In this document: piece after piece, positions 28,195 through 46,495 of the stretch | Layout: the number at the start of each line of letters is the position of its first letter | How positions within the stretch are numbered: the first letter of the stretch is position 1 | IMG/VR virus record: IMGVR_UViG_3300005573_000055 | Coordinates: 64,001-128,000 of that record | Reading direction: 5' to 3' (one strand) | From: a virus | Length of the DNA stretch: 64,000 nucleotides | Notes under the pieces: generated by a model | Seen by the model: the letters and a program-made list of their open reading frames with translations, nothing else | The model's database searches: none | Told to the model about the DNA's origin: nothing | Program-made: the position numbers and the translations under genes

Positions 28195-29841
28195 TTATTT
28201 ATCTAAATGCCAATCTACAAGTTTAGCTGCTCGGCCTTCGTGGCCTTTAAATCCAGCAACCTTAGCCACACGGCCGATGTACTGATCTTTATTCTCCATA
28301 ATGTCAAGAACTGTATCATAGTTGCCAACCTGACCTGGTCCAAGCTTAAATCTTTTGCCTGACTCTAAAGATCTACACCACATAACACCTGCGATAGCAC
28401 CTTTGTCAGTGATTCTAAAGTCAATGTCTTCAACTATCCAATCAAAAAGATCTTCACGCCACTTGATCTTAAAACCATTAATAATGGAATCACCAAAGCC
28501 AGTAGCAACAAGCCCTTCCATAGAACGATCATCTATATCGGTAAGCTCAACTACTTTGAGAATATCTGGCTTAAGAAGAGCAACTTTCTCTTGGAATTTT
28601 CTATTCTCAAAGAAGGGAGCATCATAAAGCTTTAAGTTTCCATATTTATCTACGCGATAGAGCCTAATTTCTGGCTGGACATTATCAGGTCTAAGCGAGT
28701 TGGAGTTTAGTATTCCGCCAATTTCATGGGCTGGAATATATCCTCCGGGAATAATGCCAAAATACTTCTTCCGGAAGAGAAGCTCTCCCATAGCTTTAAT
28801 CTCTTTCTCAGAAGAAACATCTGCCAATTCCCAGACTTTAGGTGTATATTCTATCCTTCGGCCCGTAGTTTTACTTATTCGCGGGGAATAGATTCTTGTG
28901 CCTTTCTTTGTAGTCCAGACGTAACAACTAGCTCCATCATATTTCTTAGTAATTGTCGCCGGATCAATTTTCTTCTCAAACTCGCTAACAGTATCAATGA
29001 GCTTTAAGTGCAATCTATCTTCAAACCTAACATCAGGATTAGTCTTAAAGCCCCAAACAGCGATAGGAGTCTTGCCATCATAAAGTTTATGGATGTATAT
29101 AGTATTATCAGGATCCAGCTGTGGGATATACATTTCTGCAGTTTCACCTTTTCCGCCGGAAATCTTCATAATCAAAGCATCTCCTTCAAGGACCTTCTGT
29201 CTAGTAAAACCACTACCATAGCCTTGACTTAGACTGCCGTTAAAGAACTCAAAAGAAGCCTCACTTTTAGAATGGTCAATATTTTGAGGAACTCTCGAGC
29301 GATTACTAATCTCTTCCCGCAAAAATGCAATAAGCTCTTTCTTGGAAGTTTCAGTCAAATGTCCATCTCTATTAAACTTAATTTTACTTTCCACAGGCTT
29401 ACCAGATACTCTTACAATGAAAGAAGTGCCATTTCCAAAATGCACATCAAGGTGTTTGCCTGCTCTACTGGCATCATGATAGACAACAACAAAGCTTGTT
29501 TTTCCCTTAGAAGAAAACCAGCTTCTTCTGCCAAGAAAGAGGTGAGACTCATTTATGTTATGCATCCTAATTACTTTCATTGCAGCCAGATCAACAATAC
29601 TAAAAGCAACCATAAAGCCAAAGCTTTCGCCTAAACGCTCGGCAAAGTGTCTTCCATCCCCCTTTTTCGCCCGAAAAATAAACGCTCCCTTCCTTGCAAC
29701 CCTCAAAGCCTTAACAAGCTTTCCAACAGGAAGTAAACCAACAAAATTCCAAAAACTAAGCCTTCCTAAACCTAAAGACCTACTTCCCTGGCCAACAACA
29801 ATACTAAACTCCTCTAAGAATTTCACTTTTCCTCCTTGCAT
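28195..29841 (-). CDS. ATP-dependent DNA ligase fused to a LigD-type 3'-phosphoesterase domain
   Basis: PE-like VVVYHDASRAGKHLDV, IDHS, GYGSG; ligase motif I KKYDG, MGEL, EGLV, FKIK; C-terminal OB-like region. Confidence 0.75.
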   Translation of the reverse strand: MQGGKVKFLEEFSIVVGQGSRSLGLGRLSFWNFVGLLPVGKLVKALRVARKGAFIFRAKKGDGRHFAERLGESFGFMVAFSIVDLAAMKVIRMHNINESHLFLGRRSWFSSKGKTSFVVVYHDASRAGKHLDVHFGNGTSFIVRVSGKPVESKIKFNRDGHLTETSKKELIAFLREEISNRSRVPQNIDHSKSEASFEFFNGSLSQGYGSGFTRQKVLEGDALIMKISGGKGETAEMYIPQLDPDNTIYIHKLYDGKTPIAVWGFKTNPDVRFEDRLHLKLIDTVSEFEKKIDPATITKKYDGASCYVWTTKKGTRIYSPRISKTTGRRIEYTPKVWELADVSSEKEIKAMGELLFRKKYFGIIPGGYIPAHEIGGILNSNSLRPDNVQPEIRLYRVDKYGNLKLYDAPFFENRKFQEKVALLKPDILKVVELTDIDDRSMEGLVATGFGDSIINGFKIKWREDLFDWIVEDIDFRITDKGAIAGVMWCRSLESGKRFKLGPGQVGNYDTVLDIMENKDQYIGRVAKVAGFKGHEGRAAKLVDWHLDK

Positions 29842-31136: not shown

Positions 31137-31318
31137 ACCTCCTTTTTATTTGTTTATTCAAAATCCTTTTCTTTTCCTGATAGAAAGTCTCTAAAGCTTG
31201 TAGAGCACCAAAGACTTTCTAATCAGGGGCGAAAAGGCTTGTCTTTCAAATGCAAATCTATAGCACCTGCAAATGCAGGAAAGCTGCATTTTTGTATGCC
31301 TTTCTGCTACAGACTGAT

Positions 31319-31490
31319 GTTTATCCTCCGGGAAAGTCTTTCAAGAGGGTTTTTCATTCGCCGGAAAGGGAGTTTATCCTCCGGGAGAAACCTTTCAAGA
31401 GGCTTATCCTTTCTTGAGGGGTTTATCCTCCGGGGATGGGCCTTTCAAGATAGCTTATCCTCTCTTGAAAGAGGAGCTTTATCCTCCGGG
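31319..31490 (-). repeat. Four spaced CCCGGAGGATAAA repeats with intervening TCAAGA/TCTTGA hairpins (candidate sRNA)
   Basis: + strand TTTATCCTCCGGG at ~31320, 31373, 31422, 31478; two further AGGATAAGC motifs in hairpin loops. Confidence 0.75.
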
Positions 31491-31845: not shown

Positions 31846-32083
31846 AGTTTTCTTCTTTAAGCGTTTTTGCGAATCCTCTTGCAGCTTTACGCATTGCGTA
31901 GGCTGTAATAAACGCCATTTTGAAGAGTCCGTAGGTCATTTTAACGTCGTCAATGGTGGCTGTAACTTTGTCGGAGGCCTTCTGGATCTGCAGTTTGGCC
32001 TTTTTCTGTAGGTCTTGGATGTCTTCCTTTGCCGCTTGCTTGACTACTGGGAGTTCTTGCTTTAGGGCCTTGAAGAATTTCAT
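31823..32083 (-). CDS. Helical hypothetical protein (tandem paralog of 32080-32322)
   Basis: LKQELPVVKQAAKEDIQDL vs LKKELPVLKQAAKEDLQNL. Confidence 0.7.
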   Translation of the reverse strand: MKFFKALKQELPVVKQAAKEDIQDLQKKAKLQIQKASDKVTATIDDVKMTYGLFKMAFITAYAMRKAARGFAKTLKEENFEETNDF

Positions 32084-32322
32084 TGTTTATCCTCCTTTTT
32101 TAGCATTTCTTTTACGGTTATAGGTCTTTGGTTGGGTTTGGACATCATGTAAGCTGCCAGGAATCCTACTTTGACGGCTTCGTAGAACATTTTTGCTTCT
32201 TCAACAGTCTCTTTAGCCTTTTCTATCACATCTTTGGCGGTTTTGTCTAAATTCTGCAAGTCTTCCTTTGCTGCCTGCTTTAAAACTGGAAGTTCTTTCT
32301 TTAAGAGTTCTAAGAGTTTCAT
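32080..32322 (-). CDS. Helical hypothetical protein (tandem paralog of 31823-32083)
   Basis: Shared ELPVxKQAAKEDxQxL and FxxAYxM motifs; AAGGAGG RBS. Confidence 0.7.
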   Translation of the reverse strand: MKLLELLKKELPVLKQAAKEDLQNLDKTAKDVIEKAKETVEEAKMFYEAVKVGFLAAYMMSKPNQRPITVKEMLKKEDKQ

Positions 32323-32342
32323 TGTTACCTCCTTGGTTTTTG

Positions 32343-34862: not shown

Positions 34863-35147
34863 CTATGATAATTTGATTTTAATTAAGATATATTCAACCG
34901 CTTTGCCGTCCGGAGCAACAGCGGTTCTTAGTTCGTAGTAGTTTTTGAGTTCGAATGAGTCGAGGATCTCAGTTTTGTCCATAACCTTCTTGTTTAAGGG
35001 AACTAATTCGATAAGATAGGCTTCCCAAACTTCGCCTTCTCTGGCGAGTTTGGCATTTATAAAGGCTGGGAAGATCACCTTCCCGTCTTGAAATATCGGA
35101 GCGCTTGAGAGCTTCCCGTACTTATCTTTTGTTACTTTGAGTTCCAT
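34863..35147 (-). CDS. Truncated duplicate of the N-terminal domain of 35161-36087
   Basis: MELKVTKDKYGKLSSAPIFQDGKVIFP...EGEVWEA vs MELTITRNKFGELAGSPIFQDGKVIFP...EGEVWEA. Confidence 0.7.
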   Translation of the reverse strand: MELKVTKDKYGKLSSAPIFQDGKVIFPAFINAKLAREGEVWEAYLIELVPLNKKVMDKTEILDSFELKNYYELRTAVAPDGKAVEYILIKIKLS

Positions 35148-35160
35148 TTTTATCTCCTTG

Positions 35161-36087
35161 TTAGTTTATAATCTCTTCTGAGAGGACGGTTTCTCTCTCT
35201 AAGCAGTGTGAAACCTCTTTGAATTCGAGGATTTCACTGCTTAATTCTTTGAAACCTTCTCTTTCGAGGGGTAAATTGTGATCAGCTGTCCATTTATATC
35301 CAATCTGTGCTATCTTGGTATAGCAATAGCGACGTGAGTCAACTCTTGACTCACGGACATTATCCTCACTGTTAGAATATTTTGGAGCGTAGCTGCTCCA
35401 TCTTTCAATAATTCTCTTTACTTTTCTGACATCGATGTCCAGCTCAAACTCTTTGGATTCGACTCTTCTTGACAGAAATTCCTTCTCTACCACCTCGAAG
35501 GTTGTAGTGTCTTTTACGAAGCCGCGGTATTCAGCGACTTCCTTCTCTATATTCTCCCAGACTTTTAATTTCTTTGCATTCAAGTCGACTTCGCAGTTGT
35601 AGTCGCTGCTGAAGACCTTTCCGGTTGCGACTACTCTGATGATTTTGTTGTCAATAGACATAACTCTCTTGTATGTCTCTATTTCTTTTTTGTATTTATC
35701 GGCGATTTCAACAGGCAGATCTTTCCAATAGAAGTAGTAATTCGTATGGTCTGCCTTTACTTTCCCACCGACTCTGTAATATTTGATGTATGAAACCCCC
35801 TCTAGTATTCTTACATATCCATTAGAATAATAGTGCTCTTTGATTTGAGGGGCCGGCAATTCGGGAAGGATCAAGCGAAATACTCCCTTGAACATAGGTT
35901 TCCCTTTGCGGTCAACCTTGTTTAAGGGAATGAGCTTTACCAGTTCGGCTTCCCAGACTTCTCCTTCTTTGGCGAGTTCTGGGTTTTCAAAGACCGGGAA
36001 GATTACCTTTCCGTCCTGAAAGATTGGAGAGCCTGCGAGCTCTCCGAACTTATTTCTAGTTATTGTTAATTCCATTTTCATCTCCAT
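35161..36087 (-). CDS. Hypothetical protein
   Basis: 308-aa ORF downstream of a motif-bearing intergenic region. Confidence 0.65.
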   Translation of the reverse strand: MEMKMELTITRNKFGELAGSPIFQDGKVIFPVFENPELAKEGEVWEAELVKLIPLNKVDRKGKPMFKGVFRLILPELPAPQIKEHYYSNGYVRILEGVSYIKYYRVGGKVKADHTNYYFYWKDLPVEIADKYKKEIETYKRVMSIDNKIIRVVATGKVFSSDYNCEVDLNAKKLKVWENIEKEVAEYRGFVKDTTTFEVVEKEFLSRRVESKEFELDIDVRKVKRIIERWSSYAPKYSNSEDNVRESRVDSRRYCYTKIAQIGYKWTADHNLPLEREGFKELSSEILEFKEVSHCLERETVLSEEIIN

Positions 36088-36131: not shown

Positions 36132-36210
36132 CAATACTAATGTAGTTCGATTGACAGTGTGTGTTAATGCAGGCGTGTGTGTGTCCTGGCGGCTTTCCTT
36201 TTAGCCGCCG
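36132..36210 (-). promoter_or_regulatory. Repeated (AC)n...AATCGAACTACATTAG motif, copy 1
   Basis: + caatactaatgtagttcgatt followed by GT tracts and a GGCGGCT/AGCCGCC hairpin; 20/21 identical to 36505-36525. Confidence 0.65.
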
Positions 36211-36243
36211 CGTGATTGGAATTATCCGCCAGCACATAAAAAA

Positions 36244-36504: not shown

Positions 36505-36607
36505 CAATGCTAATGTAGTTCGATTAATAGATGCGTGTGTGCTAATGGGAGCGTGTGTGTGTCAATGCGGGCGTGTGTGTGTCGAGGCGGCTCCCCTTTT
36601 AGCCACC
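36505..36607 (-). promoter_or_regulatory. Repeated (AC)n...AATCGAACTACATTAG motif, copy 2
   Basis: + caatgctaatgtagttcgatt followed by GT tracts and a similar hairpin. Confidence 0.65.
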
Positions 36608-36773
36608 GCACGTTCAAAATTACCCCTTAGTGGGGTAATTAAAAAAAATAAATACAATATTCACCCGATGAAAGGTGAATATATGGAAGGCTCATCAGCC
36701 CTCCTCCTTTTGTTTGACTGCCCCACTTTCCCGGGGCTTGGGGTTTTTTAAGGTGGTTTTCTCCACCATCATT

Positions 36774-36822
36774 GCCCCCACGCCAGACTTGAACTGGCTG
36801 CTGGCCCTACCCAGGGTGGGGC
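36774..36822 (-). ncRNA. Anticodon-less tRNA-like element A
   Basis: GCCCCAC-C-CTGG[GTAGGG]CCAG-CA-GCCAG[TTCAAGT]CTGGC-GTGGGGG-C: acceptor-like stem, D-like hairpin, canonical T arm. Confidence 0.75.
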
Positions 36823-36842
36823 GGCAAGGTAGGCAGACGTGA

Positions 36843-37130
36843 CTATTTAATCACGTCGCCTACCTTGTACTCGGGGTTGTGGCTTACTGAAACCACGTAT
36901 CCCCCGAGTTTGGGGTCAAAAACTGCGATGCTGCCGACGGTGTGCGCATACTTATGTATGAGCACTGCGGCTACCGGAAGGGATGCTGGCCCGTTGACTT
37001 TTAGCAACGGGATCCCTTTAATTTCCGGGGCGTTGTCTTTTACAAACTGAACGAGTTCGGCGTTTGTTGCCGGGTCGCCGAACCCGATCGTTAATGTGTC
37101 GTTATTAAATGACATATTGAATAATGCCAT
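36843..37130 (-). CDS. csx3: Csx3/Crn3-family ring-nuclease-like protein
   Basis: LKVNGPASLPVAAVLIHKYAHT...AVFDPKLGGYVVSVSH...KVGDVI, close to the Csx3 signature HKYAHT..AVYDPRLG.VV.SH...GDVI; GGAGG RBS at MALFN. Confidence 0.88.
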   Translation of the reverse strand: MALFNMSFNNDTLTIGFGDPATNAELVQFVKDNAPEIKGIPLLKVNGPASLPVAAVLIHKYAHTVGSIAVFDPKLGGYVVSVSHNPEYKVGDVIK

Positions 37131-37176
37131 GTTAACCTCCTTTTTAAAGTTATTAAATAATAATTTATGATGAATT

Positions 37177-37231
37177 TGGCTCAGGCGGGACTTGAACACC
37201 GCTCTCTCAGGCTTCCAGCAGCCACTGAGCC
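37177..37231 (-). ncRNA. Anticodon-less tRNA-like element C
   Basis: GGCTCAG-T-GGCT[GCTGGA]AGCC-TGAGAGA-GCGG(T)G[TTCAAGT]CCCGC-CTGAGCC-A. Confidence 0.7.
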
Positions 37232-37237
37232 ACCACA

Positions 37238-37630
37238 CAAGCTATCTTAGTAGCTCGATAGCTTGCAGTCTCGCTGATCACCCCTTCCCTTGAGCTCCGA
37301 TGCTACTATCGTTGCTCAAGGTTCCGTCGGGTTTACTCAGCTACCCGAAGCCCAATTAGCGTTACCCAGGACGCGCCACGTGGAGGCTTGGGCTTTTGCG
37401 TCCCACAACATTACTGGCTAAGTGGGACAGCCAGTGTCCGTTATGTGGCTGATCCGTGGAGCATTGCACTCCGGTGAGTGGACGCCACATCGGCCTGCTG
37501 AGGCGAGGCCACACCTTGGGTCTTCGAGCCGCTTGGGCGGAATGGGTCCACGGCTCTGAGACCCATAAACCTATAAGCCAGGCTTAGCCTAGCTTATAGG
37601 CTATTCTTTATCCCCTTAAAGGGACCACAT
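37238..37630 (-). ncRNA. Hairpin/pseudoknot-dense non-coding tract (candidate structured RNA)
   Basis: Perfect 7+7 bp pseudoknot at 37400-37435; stems CCTTGAGC/GCTCAAGG, AAGCTATC/GATAGCTT, CCTATAAGC/GCTTATAGG, ATGTGGC/GCCACAT. Confidence 0.6.
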
Positions 37631-37763
37631 AGACACGGCGGAGGTAGGTTGGTTATATGACCCGGGTTAGGTGGGGTCCGCCGCTGATACATGCGAGCAG
37701 AGCGAATGTAGACTAAGTAGGTATAGCTCTGGCTTCCCGGGTCTGGTTGGTCTTCGCAAGGGA

Positions 37764-38014
37764 GTGTGTGTAGGCGGAGCGGGTACATGGAAGGTTTTAG
37801 CGACCCAGGTTAGGTGGGCACCGCCGGGTACACATGTGAGGTGGGGACGGAGCCATGGATGGTTTTAGCGACCCATGGAGGGGTGGTAGACTGGGGCGTG
37901 TGTGAGGCGGAGCGGAGGTGGGTTGATTTAGGGTCAACAGGTCAGGTTAGGTTGGCCCAGGTTGGTCAGGCTGGACAGGCCTCCGTTGGGGGCGTGTGTG
38001 AGGCGGAGCGGAGG
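37764..38014 (+). repeat. G-rich direct repeats
   Basis: GGGGCGTGTGTGAGGCGGAGCGGAGG at 37893 and 37989 (variant at 37764); CATGGAWGGTTTTAGCGACCCA at 37786 and 37854. Confidence 0.75.
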
Positions 38015-38023
38015 CCTGTCTTG

Positions 38024-38389
38024 CTAGTCTAACTCGCTCCAGTCGAAGCCGTTAATTCTAACTACCGGCTTCTTCTTTGTAATCGCTGAAGCGAGTTTCC
38101 TAGCGTTGCAATACGCTGGCCGTGCACCACAATTGACGTGCAGCACTTCGGCAACGATCTCTTTCCAGTTATTCCTCTCTTTGAGACGTTGCACGTACCA
38201 GTGCTCCACGTTGGGTCGGGTATCTTTGATGCCACTGCCCCATTTGATCTGGATAGCATAAGCTATCCCATCAATTATGACAATGACATCAATCTTGGCC
38301 TCGTGGTCAAGGCGTTTATGTGTAATCACCTCGAATCCACTATTCCTGAGCGCATCGACAATCATGCGCTCGAGGATGAGACCATTCAT
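38024..38389 (-). CDS. PD-(D/E)xK restriction-endonuclease-fold protein
   Basis: LERMIVDALRNSGFEV...DHEAKIDVIV...AIQIK. Confidence 0.7.
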   Translation of the reverse strand: MNGLILERMIVDALRNSGFEVITHKRLDHEAKIDVIVIIDGIAYAIQIKWGSGIKDTRPNVEHWYVQRLKERNNWKEIVAEVLHVNCGARPAYCNARKLASAITKKKPVVRINGFDWSELD

Positions 38390-38880
38390 AATGCCCTCCC
38401 GTTGTGGTTTAGCCAGCTACGATCTGGCTCGGGCAGCTTCTTATAGCCCTCCTGTGGGTCGAATTGATAGATCTCTACATTGAAATGATGGAGACCTATC
38501 AACATCCCTATCAGGGCCGATAGACCAATCGGACCGCTGAGGACTAATTTTATCTTGCAATTTTGGTTTTGTGCCATAGCACTGTAAACCTCTGTTGCAA
38601 GTTTTTTATAGTCCTCGTCGGTCACTAACATTGGTCTACCGAGCACGAGGTTGACGTCTATCAGCGTGTCAAGTTCGCCAAAGTAGGCTTTGACAGCTTC
38701 GCTAACAGGACGTCCTACCTGCAGGGCTATAATATAGTCCTTGCCGCCTTCATTGGCATATTTTTTCTTCTTGGCAATCTTGGTCTGAGACCAGATTTTA
38801 ACAGTGATTGCCAAGGAGACTAATGCCAACAAAGGCTCGGCAATAGCCCAAGCCTGGGAGATGAATTCAAAGAGGTTCAT
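38386..38880 (-). CDS. N-terminal TM helix plus short SAVED-like domain
   Basis: IKLVLSGPIGLSALIGMLIG...VEIYQFD...Y resembles the C-terminal SAVED signature (IHLFxxGPxxLAxxLG...VYx...Y). Confidence 0.65.
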   Translation of the reverse strand: MNLFEFISQAWAIAEPLLALVSLAITVKIWSQTKIAKKKKYANEGGKDYIIALQVGRPVSEAVKAYFGELDTLIDVNLVLGRPMLVTDEDYKKLATEVYSAMAQNQNCKIKLVLSGPIGLSALIGMLIGLHHFNVEIYQFDPQEGYKKLPEPDRSWLNHNGRAL

Positions 38881-38932
38881 GACTGCCTCCCGATGGCTAA
38901 ACTTAGAACTGGTATAACGGTCTATAGAATGG

Positions 38933-39754
38933 CTAAACTATCCTGCCTCCGTTATACCAGTACATGAACCCTCCTGGAGCCCATTTTGTCCTAAGCCCCA
39001 TTCTCAGTTCAGGGAACTTTCTGGAAACCTCATCAAGATATTCCATAGTGGTCTCCAGCGGCAATGGTCGCCAATCAATTCCAGACACGGGCTTGTATAC
39101 CCTGACTGTCCAGAATTTATTGTCGACATTGCCATGCTTAACAACCATCTCTGCGATGTGCAGGAAATCATCCAAGGTGGTTGTAGAAAATACGCATGTG
39201 CGTACATCTACAAGCACACCTTTATTGCTTAAGATCTCCTGAACACGCAGGGAGTTGTTGAGCATTTTTTCTCCCTGACCGTTTCTGAGGCCAGCGCGCA
39301 TATTGAATTCTGCGCCGTCTGCGGCCTTAAGATCAATTGCTGCATAATCCAAATACGGCAGCAGCATTTCAACAAATTTAGGACTGCTGCCATTATGCGC
39401 AATTGAAATCTTCTGGCCACGTTCAGCACAGAAGCGCGCTATATCCATAGAGTCTTTGATAAAGACACAAGGATCGCCTCCAGAAAGACGAATCCTTTCG
39501 CCTTTATCTAAGGACTCCTGGATCAGAGAGAATATCTCTGAGGCTTTATATCTTCCGGCAGTGATTATGTCACCTTTGTCGGTGACAAACTGCCCGTCGC
39601 GTTTGCAATATGGGCAGTGGAAGTTACACCTGCCGAAAGAGATAATCCTCATCATCTCTATTTCCCTACCAAATAACTTGAGGAAATAGGCCGGTCGCAC
39701 TTCTGCAGCCGGCTTTCCTCCGTAGGGAATGAGAGTGAGTATTCTCTCTTTCAT
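38933..39754 (-). CDS. Radical SAM enzyme (NrdG/PflA activase-like)
   Basis: CNFHCPYC, LSGGDP, HNGS, DYAAIDLKA, VDVRT; GGAGG RBS at MKERIL. Confidence 0.9.
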   Translation of the reverse strand: MKERILTLIPYGGKPAAEVRPAYFLKLFGREIEMMRIISFGRCNFHCPYCKRDGQFVTDKGDIITAGRYKASEIFSLIQESLDKGERIRLSGGDPCVFIKDSMDIARFCAERGQKISIAHNGSSPKFVEMLLPYLDYAAIDLKAADGAEFNMRAGLRNGQGEKMLNNSLRVQEILSNKGVLVDVRTCVFSTTTLDDFLHIAEMVVKHGNVDNKFWTVRVYKPVSGIDWRPLPLETTMEYLDEVSRKFPELRMGLRTKWAPGGFMYWYNGGRIV

Positions 39755-39813
39755 GTGGCCTCCAGGCTGGAGGTTCATGTTCATTGATTTATTTTATCTA
39801 TTATCTACTATCC

Positions 39814-42576
39814 TTAATCCTCCTTTCTTAATTTAAACTTAACGCTGAAGCCAGTCGGCTTGCCAGTCTTAACACTGATGTAAGGATATACCTCGTCAAC
39901 TCGGTAATATCCTTCATCAATGTTGCGGCATTCATCGCCGACTTTGAACTTCAGCTTCTGACCGCCTACTGAGATGCTAAAGGTCTTTATTTCTTTGCCA
40001 TTAGCATCTCTTTCGGCGGTAATTTCTACGAGTGAATCTCTGTGTTTTGTTCTGGCATTGATGTCCAATGCTTCGAACATTTCACAGAGATTCAGCTCGT
40101 CAGCGTATACCCGCACCTCGAACGTTGGCAGTGCGGCATTAAAGAAGTTGCTTGTGGCAATATACCACTTCAACTCCTTGGTGCCGCCAATGCCAAGCTC
40201 GCAGAGCACCTCAAGGAGTACCTGCCATACGCCATTGATGAACAGGTATCCTTGAGATTTGCGCTTCTGCGGGTCATTGCTGGTTGCTATGTATTCGAGG
40301 ACCGAATATACAACAGCCTTTTGGTCCTCTTTACATAGTGCCATGAACTGCAAAGAATACTTCTTATTAATTTCTCGTATCTTTGCAATTCTGGCATCAA
40401 CGTCTCGCTTGAGCTCTTCGATTTTATTAAGAGCTGCAATTTCGCCCTTATAATCGAAGTAGCTCCTGAGTTTTCTGCCGTATTTAGCGAGACGCTCAGC
40501 AATGGCCTGCTGCTGGCGCACACTCAGGTGCGGGTACACCTGGTCGGCAATACCAGCCTGCAGCTTGCCAAAGACCTCTTTGACAATTCCGTTCATATTT
40601 CTGACGAAATTGTCAATTATGGAGTCTTTGACAATCCGAGAATCCCCTTCCTCTCTGAAGAATCGAGGAGCAAGGAATGCAAAGCATTGAGACTGCTTGA
40701 TTGCATCAATGCAAGCCTCAACCTTTACCGCCTGCTCTTCATATCCTTCAGCTGAACCCTTCTGGACTCTATCAATAATGGGTTCAAACTGGAAGGAATT
40801 CTCCTGCAGGGTCTGGTAGAGGGCCATGAGATCCTTGTCTTTGTTGCCAAAGACGAAGATCTCGACCTTTAGGGCAGCCTTAAGCATCTCAACATTGGCT
40901 GCGCGGCCAATGATGTATGCTTTGCCCGCGAAGTCTCTAACAGATTGTAATAGTTTTTCATCTTCTGTTAGAGTTGGCCCGATAGCTTTGATAGCTGTGG
41001 CGGTAAGTGTATCTACAAGACCGCTTACAGCCATGAAAGCTTTGGCCACATCTGCGGGCAGGTTGCCCTTAGGTCCGGCTGCCTGAGGAGCTTCGGCTTT
41101 AGCCTTAGCTTCCCCATCAAGAGGTGTTTCGGCAGCTGGTACCCACTCTACATTACTCCAACCAGCTTTGCGAACAATAGAATATTCGCCAAGCTGATTT
41201 GGATTTCTGTAGAGCAGATACTTGCCTCTGCCCTTCTTGATGAGGACAAAGCTATCGTCGAAATCAGGACCGCCGTGTCGGGGTTTGAGTCTGAGATACT
41301 CATCCCAGCCAACGCACACGTTGTTCTGATCGACAATAACTCTGCCTTCAGGCAGCCTTCCGAAGAATACCTTGCCATCTTCGACTTTAACGATAGATGT
41401 AAGGTATCTTCTTTTGGCCCCTGGCACGAAGACTCTGGGCCATTGGGACTCATCGGCTTTGCCGGTGCCCCATTTTGGCCCATAGAACTTCTTGCCGACC
41501 AGCCGAATAACGTCCATGACCAGAGGTCTAAAGACGCTCCAGTCTACTCCGGCTTTGATGAACTCTTTGAGTCTCCACCCGCTACTGCCAAGTGGATTGA
41601 GCTCATCTTCTTCCGGATCAACGTTGTCCGGCATTGTCTCTTCGGCATCGCCGTCGTCGATGCTGAGGATGATCTCGTTAAATTTCTCACGATCGGTGAG
41701 AGCATTAACAATATATCTCACCGTCTCACCGAGATATTTAACGAGTTTTTCGGCCCTCAGCTGACCAACTGCCAATAGATTGAGTGCAGATTGCACATCA
41801 ATCATGACGTGGTCGTTGCCGTGGACCTCCTCAGCAATCGCCCAGACAACATCACGAGCTTTGACGCCGTGGTCTTTGCACCACTGAGCGTTAATGGCAA
41901 GCTCGCGTTTGATGTTGCTTTCGGCGATATAAATATCGTTAACAGGGACTTTGTTGGAAACAACAATGTGTCCCTTAACGAATTTATCACCGAGCAACAT
42001 CGTGATGCTGCCTCGACGGCGAACGCCGAGTAGCGCTGCGGCGCCGCTGCCAGCAACTACCTGGCCGTCTAAGGCTATGTAACCAGGTATATACTTAATA
42101 TTAATATACTCTGGTATAGCCTTGAGGCCTTTGGCCGAAGATAGCCTCAACAGTCGGCCGATTCTCTTTCCAGCCGTCTGTTTGTTGGCATCTTCTTTGG
42201 CCTTAATCGGTAGCTGCATCAGCTTTCCAGCACTGTCAAATATTTTGACAATGTACAGATCTGTATCTTTGTGATAACAGATCGTACTATTGTCAAAATG
42301 ATTTGCAATGCTGTCAAGCTGCGGCTTGGTGTCATTGCCGATAGTCGAGTGTTCAACTATCGTCAAGACCCAGCCTTCAGCAAAAGCATCTATAAATCCT
42401 GGTCTGAGATCAGGATTATAGAACTTTTGCTGAACTGGCAGCGCTCCGATCAATTCCTTTTCGGCAGCTAAGATGGCTTGCTTGCTTTCTCCGTAGAGAT
42501 AAGCAGTGAAGCCATCCTGATAGTTGCCGATTAGGAATGCCTTAACTGTCATGGCAGCCTCCTTCATGCTTGCCAT
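39814..42576 (-). CDS. YonO/cellular-RdRP-like single-chain two-barrel polymerase with atypical DFDD loop
   Basis: GKRIGRLLRLSS, LDGQVVAGS, KFVKGHIVV, IYIAESNIK, RVFVPG, HGGPDFDDSF, LLYRNPN, IGRAAN, IIDRVQKG parallel RdRP/YonO motifs. Confidence 0.72.
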   Translation of the reverse strand: MASMKEAAMTVKAFLIGNYQDGFTAYLYGESKQAILAAEKELIGALPVQQKFYNPDLRPGFIDAFAEGWVLTIVEHSTIGNDTKPQLDSIANHFDNSTICYHKDTDLYIVKIFDSAGKLMQLPIKAKEDANKQTAGKRIGRLLRLSSAKGLKAIPEYINIKYIPGYIALDGQVVAGSGAAALLGVRRRGSITMLLGDKFVKGHIVVSNKVPVNDIYIAESNIKRELAINAQWCKDHGVKARDVVWAIAEEVHGNDHVMIDVQSALNLLAVGQLRAEKLVKYLGETVRYIVNALTDREKFNEIILSIDDGDAEETMPDNVDPEEDELNPLGSSGWRLKEFIKAGVDWSVFRPLVMDVIRLVGKKFYGPKWGTGKADESQWPRVFVPGAKRRYLTSIVKVEDGKVFFGRLPEGRVIVDQNNVCVGWDEYLRLKPRHGGPDFDDSFVLIKKGRGKYLLYRNPNQLGEYSIVRKAGWSNVEWVPAAETPLDGEAKAKAEAPQAAGPKGNLPADVAKAFMAVSGLVDTLTATAIKAIGPTLTEDEKLLQSVRDFAGKAYIIGRAANVEMLKAALKVEIFVFGNKDKDLMALYQTLQENSFQFEPIIDRVQKGSAEGYEEQAVKVEACIDAIKQSQCFAFLAPRFFREEGDSRIVKDSIIDNFVRNMNGIVKEVFGKLQAGIADQVYPHLSVRQQQAIAERLAKYGRKLRSYFDYKGEIAALNKIEELKRDVDARIAKIREINKKYSLQFMALCKEDQKAVVYSVLEYIATSNDPQKRKSQGYLFINGVWQVLLEVLCELGIGGTKELKWYIATSNFFNAALPTFEVRVYADELNLCEMFEALDINARTKHRDSLVEITAERDANGKEIKTFSISVGGQKLKFKVGDECRNIDEGYYRVDEVYPYISVKTGKPTGFSVKFKLRKED

Positions 42577-42600
42577 GCAGTTTTTGGCTTCTCTTCTATT

Positions 42601-43392
42601 TTAGAAGGACATCAAGCTTGGTCTTTCGCCAAGCTCTTCGAGCTTGCGAAGACTAGCTTGATATGTTTCCTTTAAGTATGCTAATGTCTCCTTGTATTGG
42701 GCAACAAAGTCTCGCTTCATCTTACGGGCGAGACTGTTGCCAAATTCCTTTTTGAAATGGGCCGTTTTGTATTTAATATATTTGGCCCAATTTTTGATCT
42801 TTTTCCGGAAATATTTAACATCCCGGAAAATTTCTTTGTATTCTTTTAACCAAATCTTTTCGGCTTTTTTAGCCTTTTTGATTTGGTCGAATAATTTAGC
42901 TGCAGCATCCATAATGGTAAGATGCTTCTTACCGATTATGTCTACTGCCGTCCATGCGGATTTGGCACCGACTTCTTGTGCCTTCTCTGCATAGAACTTA
43001 TTCAGTTGCTCAATTGATTTATTAAGCTTTTTGAGCACTGAACTGTAAATTCTTTGGGCTCTGGTCAAACCGATACCGCGTACCGTGACCTGACCCTTCA
43101 TTCTTCTAAGGGTGGTGACGGCACGGGCTTTGTCGACCAATTTGTAAGCCCACTGAAGCTTCCAGCTGAGCCTTCTGACTCTAGCTTTCAGCTTTTTTTC
43201 TGTCTCATTCATTTTATTTATTTTGATTTTTGGGGCCCTTGCCACCTTGTCCTTTAGGACGAGGAGCTTGGCGGCCTGGACGGCGCCGGCCCCGACAGTT
43301 TTGTCCCCCGAAGCGGCTCTGTGGAGCACATCACGAGCCTCCTTCAGGGTGGCTGGCAGTTCTACCAGCCAATCCTTTTTAATTTTTTTCAT
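42601..43392 (-). CDS. Highly basic Lys/Arg-rich helical protein
   Basis: Very high K/R content; start moved to MKKIKK with GAGG RBS. Confidence 0.7.
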   Translation of the reverse strand: MKKIKKDWLVELPATLKEARDVLHRAASGDKTVGAGAVQAAKLLVLKDKVARAPKIKINKMNETEKKLKARVRRLSWKLQWAYKLVDKARAVTTLRRMKGQVTVRGIGLTRAQRIYSSVLKKLNKSIEQLNKFYAEKAQEVGAKSAWTAVDIIGKKHLTIMDAAAKLFDQIKKAKKAEKIWLKEYKEIFRDVKYFRKKIKNWAKYIKYKTAHFKKEFGNSLARKMKRDFVAQYKETLAYLKETYQASLRKLEELGERPSLMSF

Positions 43393-43399
43393 GATTTCC

Positions 43400-43720
43400 T
43401 CAAATTTTTGCTTGCAATACACCGGCGGTTTTTGTATATTGCAAGCGGTTTTGGTTTTTACCAAACCGCCCTTAGCCGGGTAGCGTGTTTAGGCACGCTG
43501 CCCGACACATCTAATTGAATTTAGCGTCCCAATTAGCAAGGACGGTGCGTTGAAAAAGCAAGTCGCACGCTTGCCCTGTCAAACTCTACGGCACTGACAG
43601 GCATGCCCTTGTTGATTTGGCGCCACGAACCAGGCTCAACAAGCCAAGCCTGAGCAAAGCAGGAAGCGCGCATCGGTGGCACACCTCGCCGAAGCGGGTG
43701 CTCATGCGTGCTGCAATTAT
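43400..43720 (-). ncRNA. Structured leader/ncRNA upstream of the basic protein-polymerase operon
   Basis: Stems GCTTGCAATA/TATTGCAAGC, GCGGTTT/AAACCGC, CCTGTCA/TGACAGG, CTCAGGCT/AGCCTG; pseudoknot at 43511-43544. Confidence 0.55.
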
Positions 43721-43770
43721 TTTTATTCCCCGTGTGTGTTATATTACACAGGGAACAATTCTAAAAAAAA

Positions 43771-43830
43771 TAGTTCGATTCAAGTGTGTGTGTGTGGCGT
43801 GTGTGTGATGCACGCTACGCATACACATAA
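43771..43830 (-). promoter_or_regulatory. (AC)n...AATCGAACTA motif, copy 3
   Basis: + tagttcgatt followed by GT-dinucleotide tracts. Confidence 0.6.
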
Positions 43831-43861
43831 AAGCGATTCAATCGTTAATCAACTAATTGAA

Positions 43862-45058
43862 TCACTTTTTTATTAACTTGAGGGCCGCCTTGAGACCCTC
43901 AAGAATACCGTCGACATCGCGGACATCCACTCTGTCGACGTATAGGATTTTCCCATCTCCTACAGTACGCCATCTTGCACGTGGAGTACTGTATTTATAA
44001 GCATAATTATCCAAGTAAATCCATGTGGACTTACCGGATAATTTATTGTCTTCGAGATGGGAAATCCCATCATAGTCGCCAATGTAGAGGATATAGTCGA
44101 ATTGACTATATATCTCACGCTGGCGACTTTCCTCATCAACGTCTTTTTCTATTATGCTGCCATTTGAATTTGGCGCATAATATACTGAGACGTTGATTTC
44201 CTTGGCGAAATTAGCTAATTCTTGGGCGATCTTTTTAGTTGCGCCCGAGAATGTTACACAGGACCCGCTCTCATCGTTGGTGATGAGAATCTTTGGTCCG
44301 TCGTTCTTTCGCCAAGGATCATATACTGCGGGCAACGGATTTCTATGCGTTGCCCGCAGTATTTCATACTTTAGAGGGTTGATCTTTTCTTCCTCAATTG
44401 TGGGTAACCCTCTCAAACCCCACAATTGGGCCAAAATTTCAGCACAAGCCGCCTCTGTGCGGCGATCGATTTCAATGTCGCCGCCGCCACCAACACATGT
44501 GGCCGGCGACTTGTGCTTATGAATTAATTTTATTTTTGCATCGGGATTTCCATCAAGCTGTTTTTTGACAGCTTCCCGATGCTTTTTAATTAATTCTTGC
44601 TTCTTCCGTCTCTTATAAGAGACGAGAAGAGCTAAATTTTTATTGAGGGCTTCTTGTGCCTTTTCATAATCCTGAGCGTCTTTACGCCCAAGATTATCAG
44701 GCTTTGAAGCCCTCTTTTTGGGCGAGGAGGGCTTGTCTTTGCCTTTGCCCTCCTCTTTCCCATTTCGAATCTCTTGATTAGCGACGCTATCGCCCCCATG
44801 ATAGTCGTCGCTAATTTTTTCAATAGCGTCTTGCACCTCTGCTTGCATCTGGTGCAGACGCTTTTCTGAAACTTTGTAGAGTTTTCCACCGCCCAGCTTC
44901 AGCGCCTCATCCATTGTGAGGTCCCTGCAGAAGCCAGGGCCATATATAAAACTATGGACACCATTTTCATATAAGGTGCCCTTTTTCAGATCCGGTACGT
45001 ATTCATAATGATATACTTTACCGGATCTATCTGTAATCAAAAAAGTGATTACTTTCAT
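43862..45058 (-). CDS. VWA-like (MIDAS) partner of the MoxR ATPase
   Basis: LITNDESGSC (DxSxS), LYIGDYDG; charged linker; follows MoxR. Confidence 0.7.
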   Translation of the reverse strand: MKVITFLITDRSGKVYHYEYVPDLKKGTLYENGVHSFIYGPGFCRDLTMDEALKLGGGKLYKVSEKRLHQMQAEVQDAIEKISDDYHGGDSVANQEIRNGKEEGKGKDKPSSPKKRASKPDNLGRKDAQDYEKAQEALNKNLALLVSYKRRKKQELIKKHREAVKKQLDGNPDAKIKLIHKHKSPATCVGGGGDIEIDRRTEAACAEILAQLWGLRGLPTIEEEKINPLKYEILRATHRNPLPAVYDPWRKNDGPKILITNDESGSCVTFSGATKKIAQELANFAKEINVSVYYAPNSNGSIIEKDVDEESRQREIYSQFDYILYIGDYDGISHLEDNKLSGKSTWIYLDNYAYKYSTPRARWRTVGDGKILYVDRVDVRDVDGILEGLKAALKLIKK

Positions 45059-45074
45059 ATTTTCTCCACTCTTA

Positions 45075-45123
45075 GCCCCCACGCCCGACTTGAACGGGCT
45101 GCTGGCCTGATCCAGGGTGGGGA
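45075..45123 (-). ncRNA. Anticodon-less tRNA-like element B
   Basis: TCCCCAC-C-CTGG[ATCAGG]CCAG-CA-GCCCG[TTCAAGT]CGGGC-GTGGGGG-C; compensatory A-T to C-G change in the T stem relative to element A. Confidence 0.78.
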
Positions 45124-45128
45124 ACCAT

Positions 45129-45860
45129 TTAACAATATTCGGACTTCAACGCCTTGAAGGCGTTGAAGCCGATGATTTCAATTAATTTCTTTCTAGTCTC
45201 GGAAGGATCGCCGGTCTCCTTCCAGAGACTTGTCCAAAAGGCGGGTTCGGGTAGCCCGCCTTGGACTTTTTTGATTAAATTTGCCATCTCTATCGCGGAT
45301 GGCGATTTAAACGCATCCTCTCCGCGAAGAGAGGCTAAAATGCTTTTAATTACATTCTTGTATTCCAGGCCGGCGTCCTGGAATACAAGACGGTCAGTTA
45401 CCTCGCTATACCCCACGTAGGTCCTGACCGTAAACCTACGCAAGGTTTCTTCTCGCAACCCCCTTCTGTTATTGGAGGTCGCTAAGAAGATAATCTGCTC
45501 TGGGCGGTACTGGATTTCCCGCCCCATTATCTCAATTAAGCTGTCCTCCAAGAGTGGAAGGAGGAGATCCTCCACTCTTGGTTTGGACTTATCGATCTCA
45601 TCGAGGAGAATTATTACCTTCTCCTCGAGAGAGGCTTCCAACCCCTTTGTTAGAGGGGTGGAGAATAAATGTAGTAAACCGTCGACAACCGTCCACCCGA
45701 AGAACAGCTCTTCGGGGGTGAGGCTATCGGTTATCGACATTTTAAACATTTTATAATTAAACCTTTCCGCCAGCCTCTTGGCGGTAAAGGTTTTCCCAGT
45801 CCCGGGTGGTCCCCAGAGGAGGACCTTGTCTCCGGGCTGGAGCCAATTTATAATATCCAT
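45129..45860 (-). CDS. MoxR-family AAA+ ATPase
   Basis: WGPPGTGKT, ILLDEIDK, TSNNRRGLREETLRRF; start moved to MDIINW. Confidence 0.88.
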   Translation of the reverse strand: MDIINWLQPGDKVLLWGPPGTGKTFTAKRLAERFNYKMFKMSITDSLTPEELFFGWTVVDGLLHLFSTPLTKGLEASLEEKVIILLDEIDKSKPRVEDLLLPLLEDSLIEIMGREIQYRPEQIIFLATSNNRRGLREETLRRFTVRTYVGYSEVTDRLVFQDAGLEYKNVIKSILASLRGEDAFKSPSAIEMANLIKKVQGGLPEPAFWTSLWKETGDPSETRKKLIEIIGFNAFKALKSEYC

Positions 45861-45869
45861 CTTATTTTT

Positions 45870-46495
45870 CCTTAAAATCCGCCACCGATTCCCCTCCCTT
45901 GGTGCGGGTTGCTGCATCAACAGGCACCTAAATCCTGTTGACGCCCTGCGGGTTGAGGGTGGGTGACTACACGACTCGTCTTCCACCCTGAGGGGCGCCT
46001 TAGGTGGGCCACTCTATCCGTCAAAGCCTATTATCTAGCAGCCCAGTTATCTACAGTATACCGCTAGTAACAGGCACATGCTAGACGGATAGCCATCTTC
46101 ACTCAGCTATAATCGTGAAGATGGGAGCCCGTTCGGCTTCGTAACCACAAGAGAATGTCCAGAGTATAACTGTATTAAAGTTATAGCCCTTTAATACAGC
46201 CTTCTGAATATGGACATTCTCCCTTTTGTCCGCCTACCCGGCGCAGAGAAAGTTAAGTCGTGTTAGCTATCTCTGCTACCGCTATGTCGGCAGACAAAAA
46301 ATACATAGCTCCGTTGTTTAAAGTGGGATACGGCACCACTGTTAGACCCTTTTGATGGTCATAGATACCTCCTTTCTCTGCTCCTTTTCCGCCGGCGGCA
46401 TAGCGGAAACGGAACAGCTTAAGTTAAACATTATCCAGCCGCCTTTTAACATGGGGTGGGCTCGCAGCAAGAAAGCATGCCTCTGCCCACCCCAA
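45870..46495 (-). ncRNA. Long hairpin/pseudoknot-dense non-coding tract with a micro-ORF
   Basis: Stems GAGAATGTCCA/TGGACATTCTC, CTGTATTAAAG/CTTTAATACAG, CCATCTTCAC/GTGAAGATGG, CTATCCGTC/GACGGATAG; pseudoknot at 46224-46309. Confidence 0.6.

Follow-up and report, generated by a model that had tools for sequence, protein, structure and literature searches.

Covarying armless tRNA-like elements at phage gene boundaries: candidate processing signals beside a csx3-like gene

Genes and tRNA-like elements of the locus

The window, by which we mean the whole 64,000-nucleotide stretch of viral DNA analyzed here, carries on its minus strand a csx3-like gene, a MoxR-type AAA+ ATPase gene, and three short tRNA-like elements, designated A, B, and C (Table 1). 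Csx3/Crn3 is a cyclic-oligoadenylate ring nuclease; the csx3 gene shares its island with a stand-alone SAVED-domain gene, and a search of viral contigs returned no csx3 relatives. The gene downstream of B has no Pfam or PDB match; a DxSxS-like motif is invariant in four homologs, and an Atlas lead (0.87) points to VWA_CoxE. A 920-amino-acid open reading frame also gave no matches, and its structure model, with a pLDDT of 36, is unusable.

Table 1 Features of the csx3 and MoxR regions (window coordinates)
Feature	Position	Strand	Details
Element A, armless tRNA-like fold	36774..36822	minus	49 nt
csx3-like gene	36843..37130	minus	95 aa; PF09620, E 1.5e-11; flanked by C and A
Element C, second subfamily	37177..37231	minus	46 nt ahead of csx3 start
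Conserved structured 5' domain joined to C	37232..37345	minus	folding z -4.1; no Rfam family
Predicted minimal HDV-like ribozyme without P4	37348..37404	minus	117 nt upstream of C
7-bp hairpin	37413..37435	minus	loop complementary to ribozyme P1 5' strand
Gene downstream of B	43862..45058	minus	possible vWA-like MoxR partner (weak support)
Element B, same family as A	45075..45123	minus	49 nt
MoxR-type AAA+ ATPase gene, upstream of B	45129..45860	minus	243 aa; by homologs

An earlier note on this DNA had described three minus-strand elements of about 50 nt, and all three stand. Element A, which starts 20 nt past the csx3 stop, has a 6-bp acceptor stem with a G-G opposition at 1:72, a 4-bp D-like stem, a 2-nt linker, a 5-bp T arm, and a C discriminator. 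Comparison with B gives exactly the 6 differences in 49 positions that had been reported: position 1, loop positions 13, 15, and 16, and a compensatory pair (28/38). The fold proposed for A and B is also their minimum-free-energy (MFE) fold. B lies in a 70-nt gap within an apparent operon, and a covarying copy occupies the same gap in G001, L028, and L032. The earlier placement of B between a MoxR stop and a VWA gene is right in its spacing (5 nt past the stop, ending 16 nt ahead of the next ATG), while the vWA label is weakly supported. C was correctly said to bracket csx3 together with A, the PF09620 gene lying between them. It consists of a 7-bp acceptor stem, U8, a 4-bp D-like stem, a 7-nt linker, a T stem with a bulged U, and an A discriminator. 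The single fold once proposed for all three elements holds as a topology, but U8, the longer linker, the bulged T stem, and a different MFE structure set C apart; folded in isolation, C forms another hairpin rather than the armless tRNA.

As in canonical tRNA, the T arm carries a TTCRANY loop and is stacked on a 6-7-bp acceptor stem. The anticodon stem-loop is absent, and a linker of 2 nt (A and B) or 7 nt (C) joins the D-like stem to the T arm. ARAGORN called no tRNA in the window, in agreement with the earlier view that these are not full tRNAs; with introns and a lowered threshold it produced implausible joins only. A descriptor of the armless fold, tuned to permit the T-stem bulge of C, matched only A, B, and C in the 155.5-kb record and gave 3 matches across 30 Markov-shuffled genomes. 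The Rfam scan, which covered the window from about 27,000 to 49,000, had no match at A, B, C, or the C-linked domain, and nothing in the same genome outside the window reached gathering level. Folding z-scores of single elements are modest (-0.9 to -2.1); it is covariation and position, rather than stability, that carry the case for the elements.

Covariation and placement of the armless family

Relatives and unrelated phages yielded 25 distinct members of the family of A and B, all folds of 46-59 nt with an acceptor stem, a 4-bp D-like hairpin, and a T arm but no anticodon arm. Among 15 sequences, two-sided changes occur in 13 of 16 pairs and span all three helices, with 97% of cells paired (0/500 in shuffled controls; 36-50% paired in slid controls), and covariation is similar with a 35-sequence set. 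The family tolerates G-U pairs, which points to an element that acts at the RNA level. C was not recovered, the A/B covariance model failing to detect it. We conclude that A, B, and C are real and that A/B and C are separate subfamilies.

Members of the A/B family share several sequence features. The T loop reads TTCRAGT in 24 of 25; in 22 of 25 a GG stands immediately ahead of the 3' strand of the D-like stem, which it abuts directly. Pair 1:72 is open in about half, position 1 being mostly U or C (U1-A72, or C1 opposite A72). RCCA is lacking, C73 is present in 20 of 25, and A and B also lack G+1. Even copies found by protein synteny alone retain the T-stem sequence, which includes an unusual C52-G62 pair. 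Of 27 copies, 21 lie -6 to +25 nt past a same-strand stop codon (2.1 expected; 2 when strand flipped), a count in which gene boundaries are judged from open reading frames, the copies are not phylogenetically independent, and the compactness of the genome puts any intergenic element near a stop.

The armless fold is present in phages of very different hosts. A scan of viral contigs for the exact A/B consensus pattern gave zero matches, Rfam returned nothing at 11 other family loci, and nothing in cultured phages matched B or the actinobacterial-type copy. Moorella phage MTATph1, the nearest cultured phage by terminase (33% identity), lacks the GGTTCRANTCC motif, and Arthrobacter phages with a related primase gene have no room for an element ahead of it.

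The RNA joined to C and equivalent gaps in relatives

C had been counted as a third copy of the same element; it is instead the 3' domain of a structured RNA of ~170 nt that is conserved in two relatives (G001 and L033). In the 5' domain, a GUA/GA internal loop interrupts a helix, an A-rich internal loop bears a variable hairpin, and there is one further hairpin. The two domains travel as a unit, past csx3 in G001 and L033 and ahead of csx3 here, and the G001 homolog of C ends in ACCA. Readings of the 5' domain as a group I intron, a TPP, c-di-GMP-I, or cobalamin riboswitch, or RNase P RNA were dropped on inspection: they were short motif likenesses only, lost in homologs and without Rfam support.

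Upstream of this unit lies a candidate self-cleaving ribozyme that the earlier note had missed. Positions 37404-37348 are predicted to fold as an HDV-like nested double pseudoknot with a 7-bp P1 that includes a G1-U wobble, an 8-bp P2, a 3-bp P3, L3 and P1.1 motifs, and the catalytic C (37359) in J4/2; the cut would fall between 37405 and 37404. The element scores 35.6 bits against RF00094, below the Rfam gathering score. An HDV-like descriptor finds it as its sole match in the genome, with 0 matches when the C is changed to A, G, or U and 0 in 30 shuffles. The hairpin just beyond it (Table 1) could form a pseudoknot that competes with ribozyme folding. No tRNA or armless element was found upstream of 37404.

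Gaps equivalent to the element sites appear to hold other RNA-cutting devices in relatives. L035 has a pistol ribozyme 40 nt past the csx3 stop (62.5 bits). L033 has an HDV-like match ahead of csx3, in the same gap as here, and a 135-nt mini-tmRNA in a nearby gap, 6 nt past a stop. A nearby gap in G001 contains a twister-P1 match (E 9e-6, below gathering).

Possible function and known counterparts

We judge the chances somewhat better than even that the elements work like t-elements, bringing in host RNase P and/or RNase Z to cleave an early, anti-defense transcript. Each would form an acceptor-stem/T-arm stack of ~12 bp with a D-like hairpin; docking of its GG on the T loop could make a tRNA elbow. 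RNase P would then cut on the 5' side of the element and/or RNase Z on the 3' side, where A and B offer no CCA that would block RNase Z. The long leftward early transcript would be split at gene boundaries into smaller mRNAs, each structured at its 5' or 3' end, so that stability and translation could be set separately. Cuts at C and A would release the csx3 message, and the ends of the ~170-nt RNA would be set by the HDV-like cut and by an RNase P site at C. The sequences themselves show the fold, its covariation, its strand and position, and the ribozymes of equivalent gaps; within this model we infer transcription, elbow formation, the cutting enzyme, and the benefit to the phage. RtcB, a CCA enzyme, an RNase Z-like protein, and Ro60 (TROVE) were not found in G000 and G001 (88% and 75% complete), so the reader of the elements is probably a host factor.

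Elbow features (T loop and GG) recruit RNase P and RNase Z in mascRNA (PMC11693755), and bacterial RNase P cuts acceptor-plus-T-arm hairpins at the correct site, measuring 12 bp from the T loop (PMC11143913). The idea of tRNA punctuation raised in the earlier note gains from covariation, post-stop placement, and the putative ribozymes and mini-tmRNA of equivalent gaps, but A and B have neither G+1 nor RCCA. For the RNase P of E. coli and B. subtilis, contact with RCCA is described as essential (PMC11143913), and an element with U or C at position 1, no RCCA, and C73 would be a suboptimal substrate for the bacterial enzyme, which counts against the model. So do the T-stem sequence constraint, which seems to exceed what RNase P should need, and the C-type fold, which is not the MFE structure in isolation. 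The GG sits directly on the D-like stem, unlike in tRNA, and an elbow is not guaranteed.

Several of these features would suit an element that is never cut. The fold could stay in the mRNA as a REP-like barrier to 3' exonucleases, or as a dock for a host or phage protein that binds the elbow or T arm, with effects on termination, antitermination, or re-initiation at the gene that follows. Tight spacing behind stop codons, conservation of the T stem at the sequence level, and the poor fit to the G+1/RCCA rules of RNase P favor this explanation, which we nevertheless consider fairly unlikely: a plain barrier needs no canonical T loop, the sharing of the fold by phages whose hosts differ widely fits recognition by a universal tRNA enzyme, and the self-cleaving ribozymes and mini-tmRNA of equivalent gaps have a cut as their common property. 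The GC-rich hairpins soon after stop codons might also suggest intrinsic or atypical terminators or pause sites. This is very improbable, since the elements have no U tract, a terminator scan lists none of them, B lies inside an apparent operon, and termination requires neither a conserved T loop nor a three-helix topology.

It is decidedly improbable that the excised mini-tRNAs and the C-type RNA are themselves the active products, acting as stable decoys for, or ligands of, host factors that recognize the top half of tRNA (CCA-end-modifying toxins, tRNA-sensing defenses, or type III CRISPR-tied nucleases). The presence of csx3 and the SAVED-domain gene in the island, the ACCA end in G001, the joint movement of C and its 5' domain, and the precedent of AcrIIIA1, an anti-CRISPR bound to a tRNA fragment (PMC11662646), are in keeping with such products. 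A processing step would still be required, however; acceptor identity varies freely, A and B encode no CCA, and lone copies are scattered behind stop codons, with no dedicated transcription unit; a decoy would have no need of a site 4-21 nt past a stop. The anticodon loop, which the elements lack, is the target of most tRNA-cutting defense nucleases. Decoys for anticodon nucleases are therefore unlikely, and the earlier suggestion of tRNA-mimic decoys is weakened. The elements might instead be relics of decayed tRNA genes or of att sites that no longer serve a purpose, an outcome that the earlier note had counted as refuting its reading. The same pattern also recovered a genuine tRNA-Lys(CUU), in L045 and L052, which resembles the elements in acceptor and T arm, and two variants retain a vestigial anticodon-like hairpin (L019 7031-7088 and L032 494-554), making descent from tRNA genes likely. 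Loss of function is another matter: it is largely refuted by compensatory changes in all helices, and we treat it as excluded. Both acceptor strands are kept and covary, whereas att duplications keep the 3' part only; genomes hold several divergent copies; and no tyrosine integrase was found in G000, G001, G002, or G003 (a search limited to that class, with PF00589 for G000 and G001).

A broader and distinctly unlikely form of the RNase P/RNase Z reading supposes an interchangeable phage kit of RNA-cutting marks (two armless tRNA-mimic lineages, mini-tmRNA, and HDV-like, pistol, and twister ribozymes) that carves the early anti-defense operon into separately controlled pieces. These pieces, and chiefly the uncatalogued C-type RNA that would be released between ribozyme and RNase P site next to csx3, would be anti-defense RNAs or would be read by a dedicated factor that recognizes the conserved T-stem sequence.

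Organelles, haloarchaea, and vertebrate lncRNAs provide established examples of tRNA-like processing signals; we did not find them described as a family inside phage mRNAs in the open-access papers searched, which does not prove their absence. If the elements are indeed RNase P/RNase Z signals, host tRNA maturation enzymes serve phage mRNA control, and a natural substrate of 46-49 nt would give multiplexed RNA expression a compact tool. The reading also bears on the siting of self-cleaving ribozymes beside phage genes, for which a role in polycistron processing is a suggestion and not yet established (PMC6765202); that idea can be tested directly on the natural swaps of ribozymes and tRNA mimics in equivalent gaps.

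The tRNA-like domain of tmRNA resembles the elements in joining an acceptor stem to a T arm without an anticodon; it is an RNase P substrate, as the elements would be, and a mini-tmRNA occupies a similar gap in L033. A, B, and C differ in having a paired D-like stem, no G3-U70, and no Rfam or ARAGORN tmRNA match. The acceptor-like stem of YrlA RNAs is closed by a loop and their gene lies beside Rsr/Ro60, whereas the acceptor stem of A, B, and C is made by the two ends of the element, with no TROVE gene and no Rfam match. YrlA bacterial Y RNAs (PMC4201824) do occur in phages. They share with the elements a nondecoding tRNA-like domain that has D, T, and acceptor-like parts. The candidate at 37404-37348 recalls the theta and other minimal HDV-like ribozymes of phages (Kienbeck et al. 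2024, PMC10879173) in its predicted fold, its sense orientation with the genes, and its proximity to a tRNA-like unit; theta ribozymes cut within 5 nt of a tRNA 3' end, whereas the predicted cut site here follows no tRNA and the tRNA-like unit is downstream of the ribozyme. mascRNA and menRNA (PMC11693755) are likewise reduced tRNA mimics with a small D stem-loop; in them two Gs of this loop touch the T loop, a contact that the GG of the phage elements may make. C, a tRNA-like 3' domain behind a structured upstream RNA, recalls MALAT1-mascRNA in its layout. No sequence relation is implied: mascRNA is vertebrate and nuclear, and its anticodon-like stem is absent from A, B, and C and vestigial in the two family variants. 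t-elements are known from plant mitochondria (Forner et al. 2007, PMC1920247) and flank crRNAs in Haloferax (PMC4946936). The phage elements are set apart by residing in bacterial viruses, by forming a uniform three-helix family of 46-59 nt without an anticodon arm, by equivalent gaps that can hold ribozymes, and by cleavage that is only predicted. Like t-elements, which are proposed guides for RNase P and RNase Z, they are nondecoding, noncanonical tRNA-like folds with a T-arm motif that sit at gene ends within long transcripts, here at gene boundaries judged from open reading frames and on the presumed transcribed strand.

A family of armless tRNA-like elements

An earlier note had placed three anticodon-less tRNA-like elements (A, B, and C) in this phage, and we confirmed all three at the positions in the table. 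The six differences between A and B match its description, and by computed folding both adopt the fold it proposed. ARAGORN called zero tRNAs, no Rfam family matched A, B, or C, and a structural descriptor matched these elements alone in the record (0.1 matches per shuffled genome).

Related contigs were reached by MoxR protein (G001, L028, L032, and L033) or Csx3 (L033 again, plus L035), and these relatives, selected without any RNA criterion, contain eleven additional A/B-type copies. Searching with a T-arm pattern gave more copies in unrelated viral and metagenome contigs and on contigs that had been binned together with genomes of Anaerolineales, Solirubrobacterales, and Clavibacter. A covariance model trained on 15 copies returned 30 matches (E < 1e-6), representing 25 distinct sequences of 46 to 59 nt, training set included.

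The covariation that the earlier note had named as a check is present in the A/B family. All three helices covary, with 97% of cells paired and two-sided changes in 13 of 16 pairs, a level reached by 0 of 500 shuffles; slid registers are only 36 to 50% paired. The D-like stem exists in at least four distinct paired forms, and the acceptor stem of the L032 copy is fully exchanged. GG lies just 5' of the D-like stem's 3' strand in 22 of 25 distinct members, and the T loop reads TTCRAGT in 24 of 25; T-arm conservation is built into the pattern-found copies, and the synteny-found copies show it too. Because the helices covary and the T arm is also kept in synteny-found copies, these comparisons indicate that selection maintains the fold, most likely at the RNA level, since G-U pairs are tolerated. 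The elements likely descend from tRNA genes, because a real tRNA-Lys shares their T stem and a vestigial anticodon-like hairpin survives in two variants (on L032 and L019), which stand midway between tRNAs and armless elements. A degenerate A/B-like fold on L035, with a non-canonical T-like loop, was missed by the covariance model.

Element C and other RNAs in equivalent gaps

C had been assigned the same fold as A and B; its tRNA-like topology stands, but its family membership does not. C carries U8, its linker is 7 nt long, and its T stem is bulged. The A/B covariance model does not detect it. Homologues occur in G001 (3' end ACCA) and L033, and in all three genomes C forms the 3' domain of an RNA of ~170 nt. 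The 5' part of this RNA keeps its internal loops and shows compensatory helix changes (folding z -4.1 for the domain in the window), although three sequences cannot support statistics. We infer that the C unit moves as a single piece, because it lies before csx3 here and after it in both relatives.

The predicted HDV-like ribozyme scores under the Rfam gathering threshold, yet it has all helices, the G1-U wobble, and the catalytic C; an HDV-like descriptor matches once in the genome, with no match in shuffles or when the catalytic C is changed. L033 carries an HDV-like ribozyme in the matching gap before csx3, L035 a pistol ribozyme 40 nt past the csx3 stop (the gap occupied by A in the window), and G001 a twister-P1 match within the early island. 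The L033 mini-tmRNA has a tRNA-like domain with G3-U70, and just 56 nt replace its mRNA-like domain. The common property of these ribozymes and the mini-tmRNA is that RNA is cut, or cuttable, in these gaps.

Features in the window and in related contigs
Feature	Location	Strand	Remarks
A	36822-36774	minus	
B	45123-45075	minus	
C	37231-37177	minus	
HDV-like ribozyme, minimal (predicted)	37404-37348	minus	directly 5' of C unit
csx3	36843-37130	minus	leftward island
SAVED-domain gene, stand-alone	38386-38880	minus	E 3e-7; near csx3; also in L033
920-aa ORF	39814-42576	minus	DFDD-type motif
Non-coding leader, ~480 nt	45860-46341	minus	upstream of MoxR gene
Dispersed direct repeats	36157-36227, 36535-36625, 37659-38014		GT/CA-dinucleotide-rich; 26-nt exact repeat; non-coding gaps of island
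Four ~17-nt repeats	31316-31490		spacing 49-56 nt; fifth copy at 28733
Local duplication, small early genes	34989-35157 / 35917-36085		76% identical
Local duplication, small early genes	31977-32087 / 32216-32326		71% identical
Mini-tmRNA, 135 nt	L033 11627-11761		intergenic gap, 6 nt past stop codon; RF00023, 63.9 bits
Degenerate A/B-like fold	L035 9750-9795		~10 nt past stop codon, upstream of csx3
Variants with vestigial hairpin	L032 494-554, L019 7031-7088		

Genomic context

In 21 of 27 copies, the A/B-type element starts between -6 and +25 nt relative to a stop codon on the same strand, against 2.1 expected at random positions and 2 with the strand flipped; these counts describe placement and not a probability, since copies are non-independent and intergenic elements always lie near gene ends. 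Four of five relatives have a copy between MoxR and the gene that follows it. Three of the remaining copies lie 545 to 660 nt upstream of a MoxR gene, and in G001 and L028 this copy heads a long conserved non-coding leader. The window's leader is 71% identical in these two contigs, with the element at its 5' side; it has no Rfam match and is probably a separate large structured RNA. In high-GC contigs (L020, L026, L050, L056, and alike), a longer variant of 54 to 58 nt lies 26 to 30 nt ahead of a large gene with primase/polymerase relatives in Arthrobacter phages.

The full record of this uncultured phage (155.5 kb), to which the window belongs, includes terminase and portal genes. Among the many small genes of the leftward island (~27.5 to 46.9 kb of the window), some locally duplicated, are csx3, a MoxR-type ATPase gene, a radical SAM gene, a weak nuclease-like ORF, and the SAVED-domain gene, a candidate sponge for cyclic-oligonucleotide signals. 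Pfam, cultured-phage, and Atlas searches gave no match to the 920-aa ORF, and its single-sequence structure model was unusable; ORFs of 843 to 896 aa occupy its position in relatives. The GT/CA-rich repeats are possibly phage promoter or operator motifs, and similar CA runs precede csx3 in L033.

Possible roles and known systems

In mascRNA, the T loop and two Gs of the D loop form an elbow that recruits RNase P and RNase Z (PMC11693755), and in plant mitochondria t-elements are proposed to generate mRNA ends in this way (PMC1920247). We lean toward a reading of the sequences in which the phage elements would draw host RNase P and/or RNase Z to the early transcript, where cuts would divide it and give structured ends. 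No tRNA-processing or ligating enzymes were found in the phage or G001. A and B lack G+1 and RCCA, making them imperfect RNase P substrates; having no encoded CCA fits RNase Z, as in B. subtilis. The cutting model gives no account of the fixed T-stem sequence. An uncut barrier or protein platform is a less probable role, and release as decoys, which the earlier note had offered beside cutting of the polycistron, is less probable still. Terminators are quite improbable and fit the terminator scan poorly; decayed tRNA or att remnants, least plausible of all, fit poorly with the covarying helices and with a tyrosine integrase search that gave no match in the phage or G001.

The phage elements are real, and no description of this armless tRNA-like phage family turned up in the open-access literature searched. 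They do not belong to the tRNAs, tmRNAs, YrlA RNAs, or att remnants. In their action the phage elements would resemble t-elements and mascRNA, systems defined by mapped RNA ends. The HDV-like ribozyme falls outside the theta ribozymes. According to a review, a role for phage-associated ribozymes in processing polycistrons is suggested but not established (PMC6765202).
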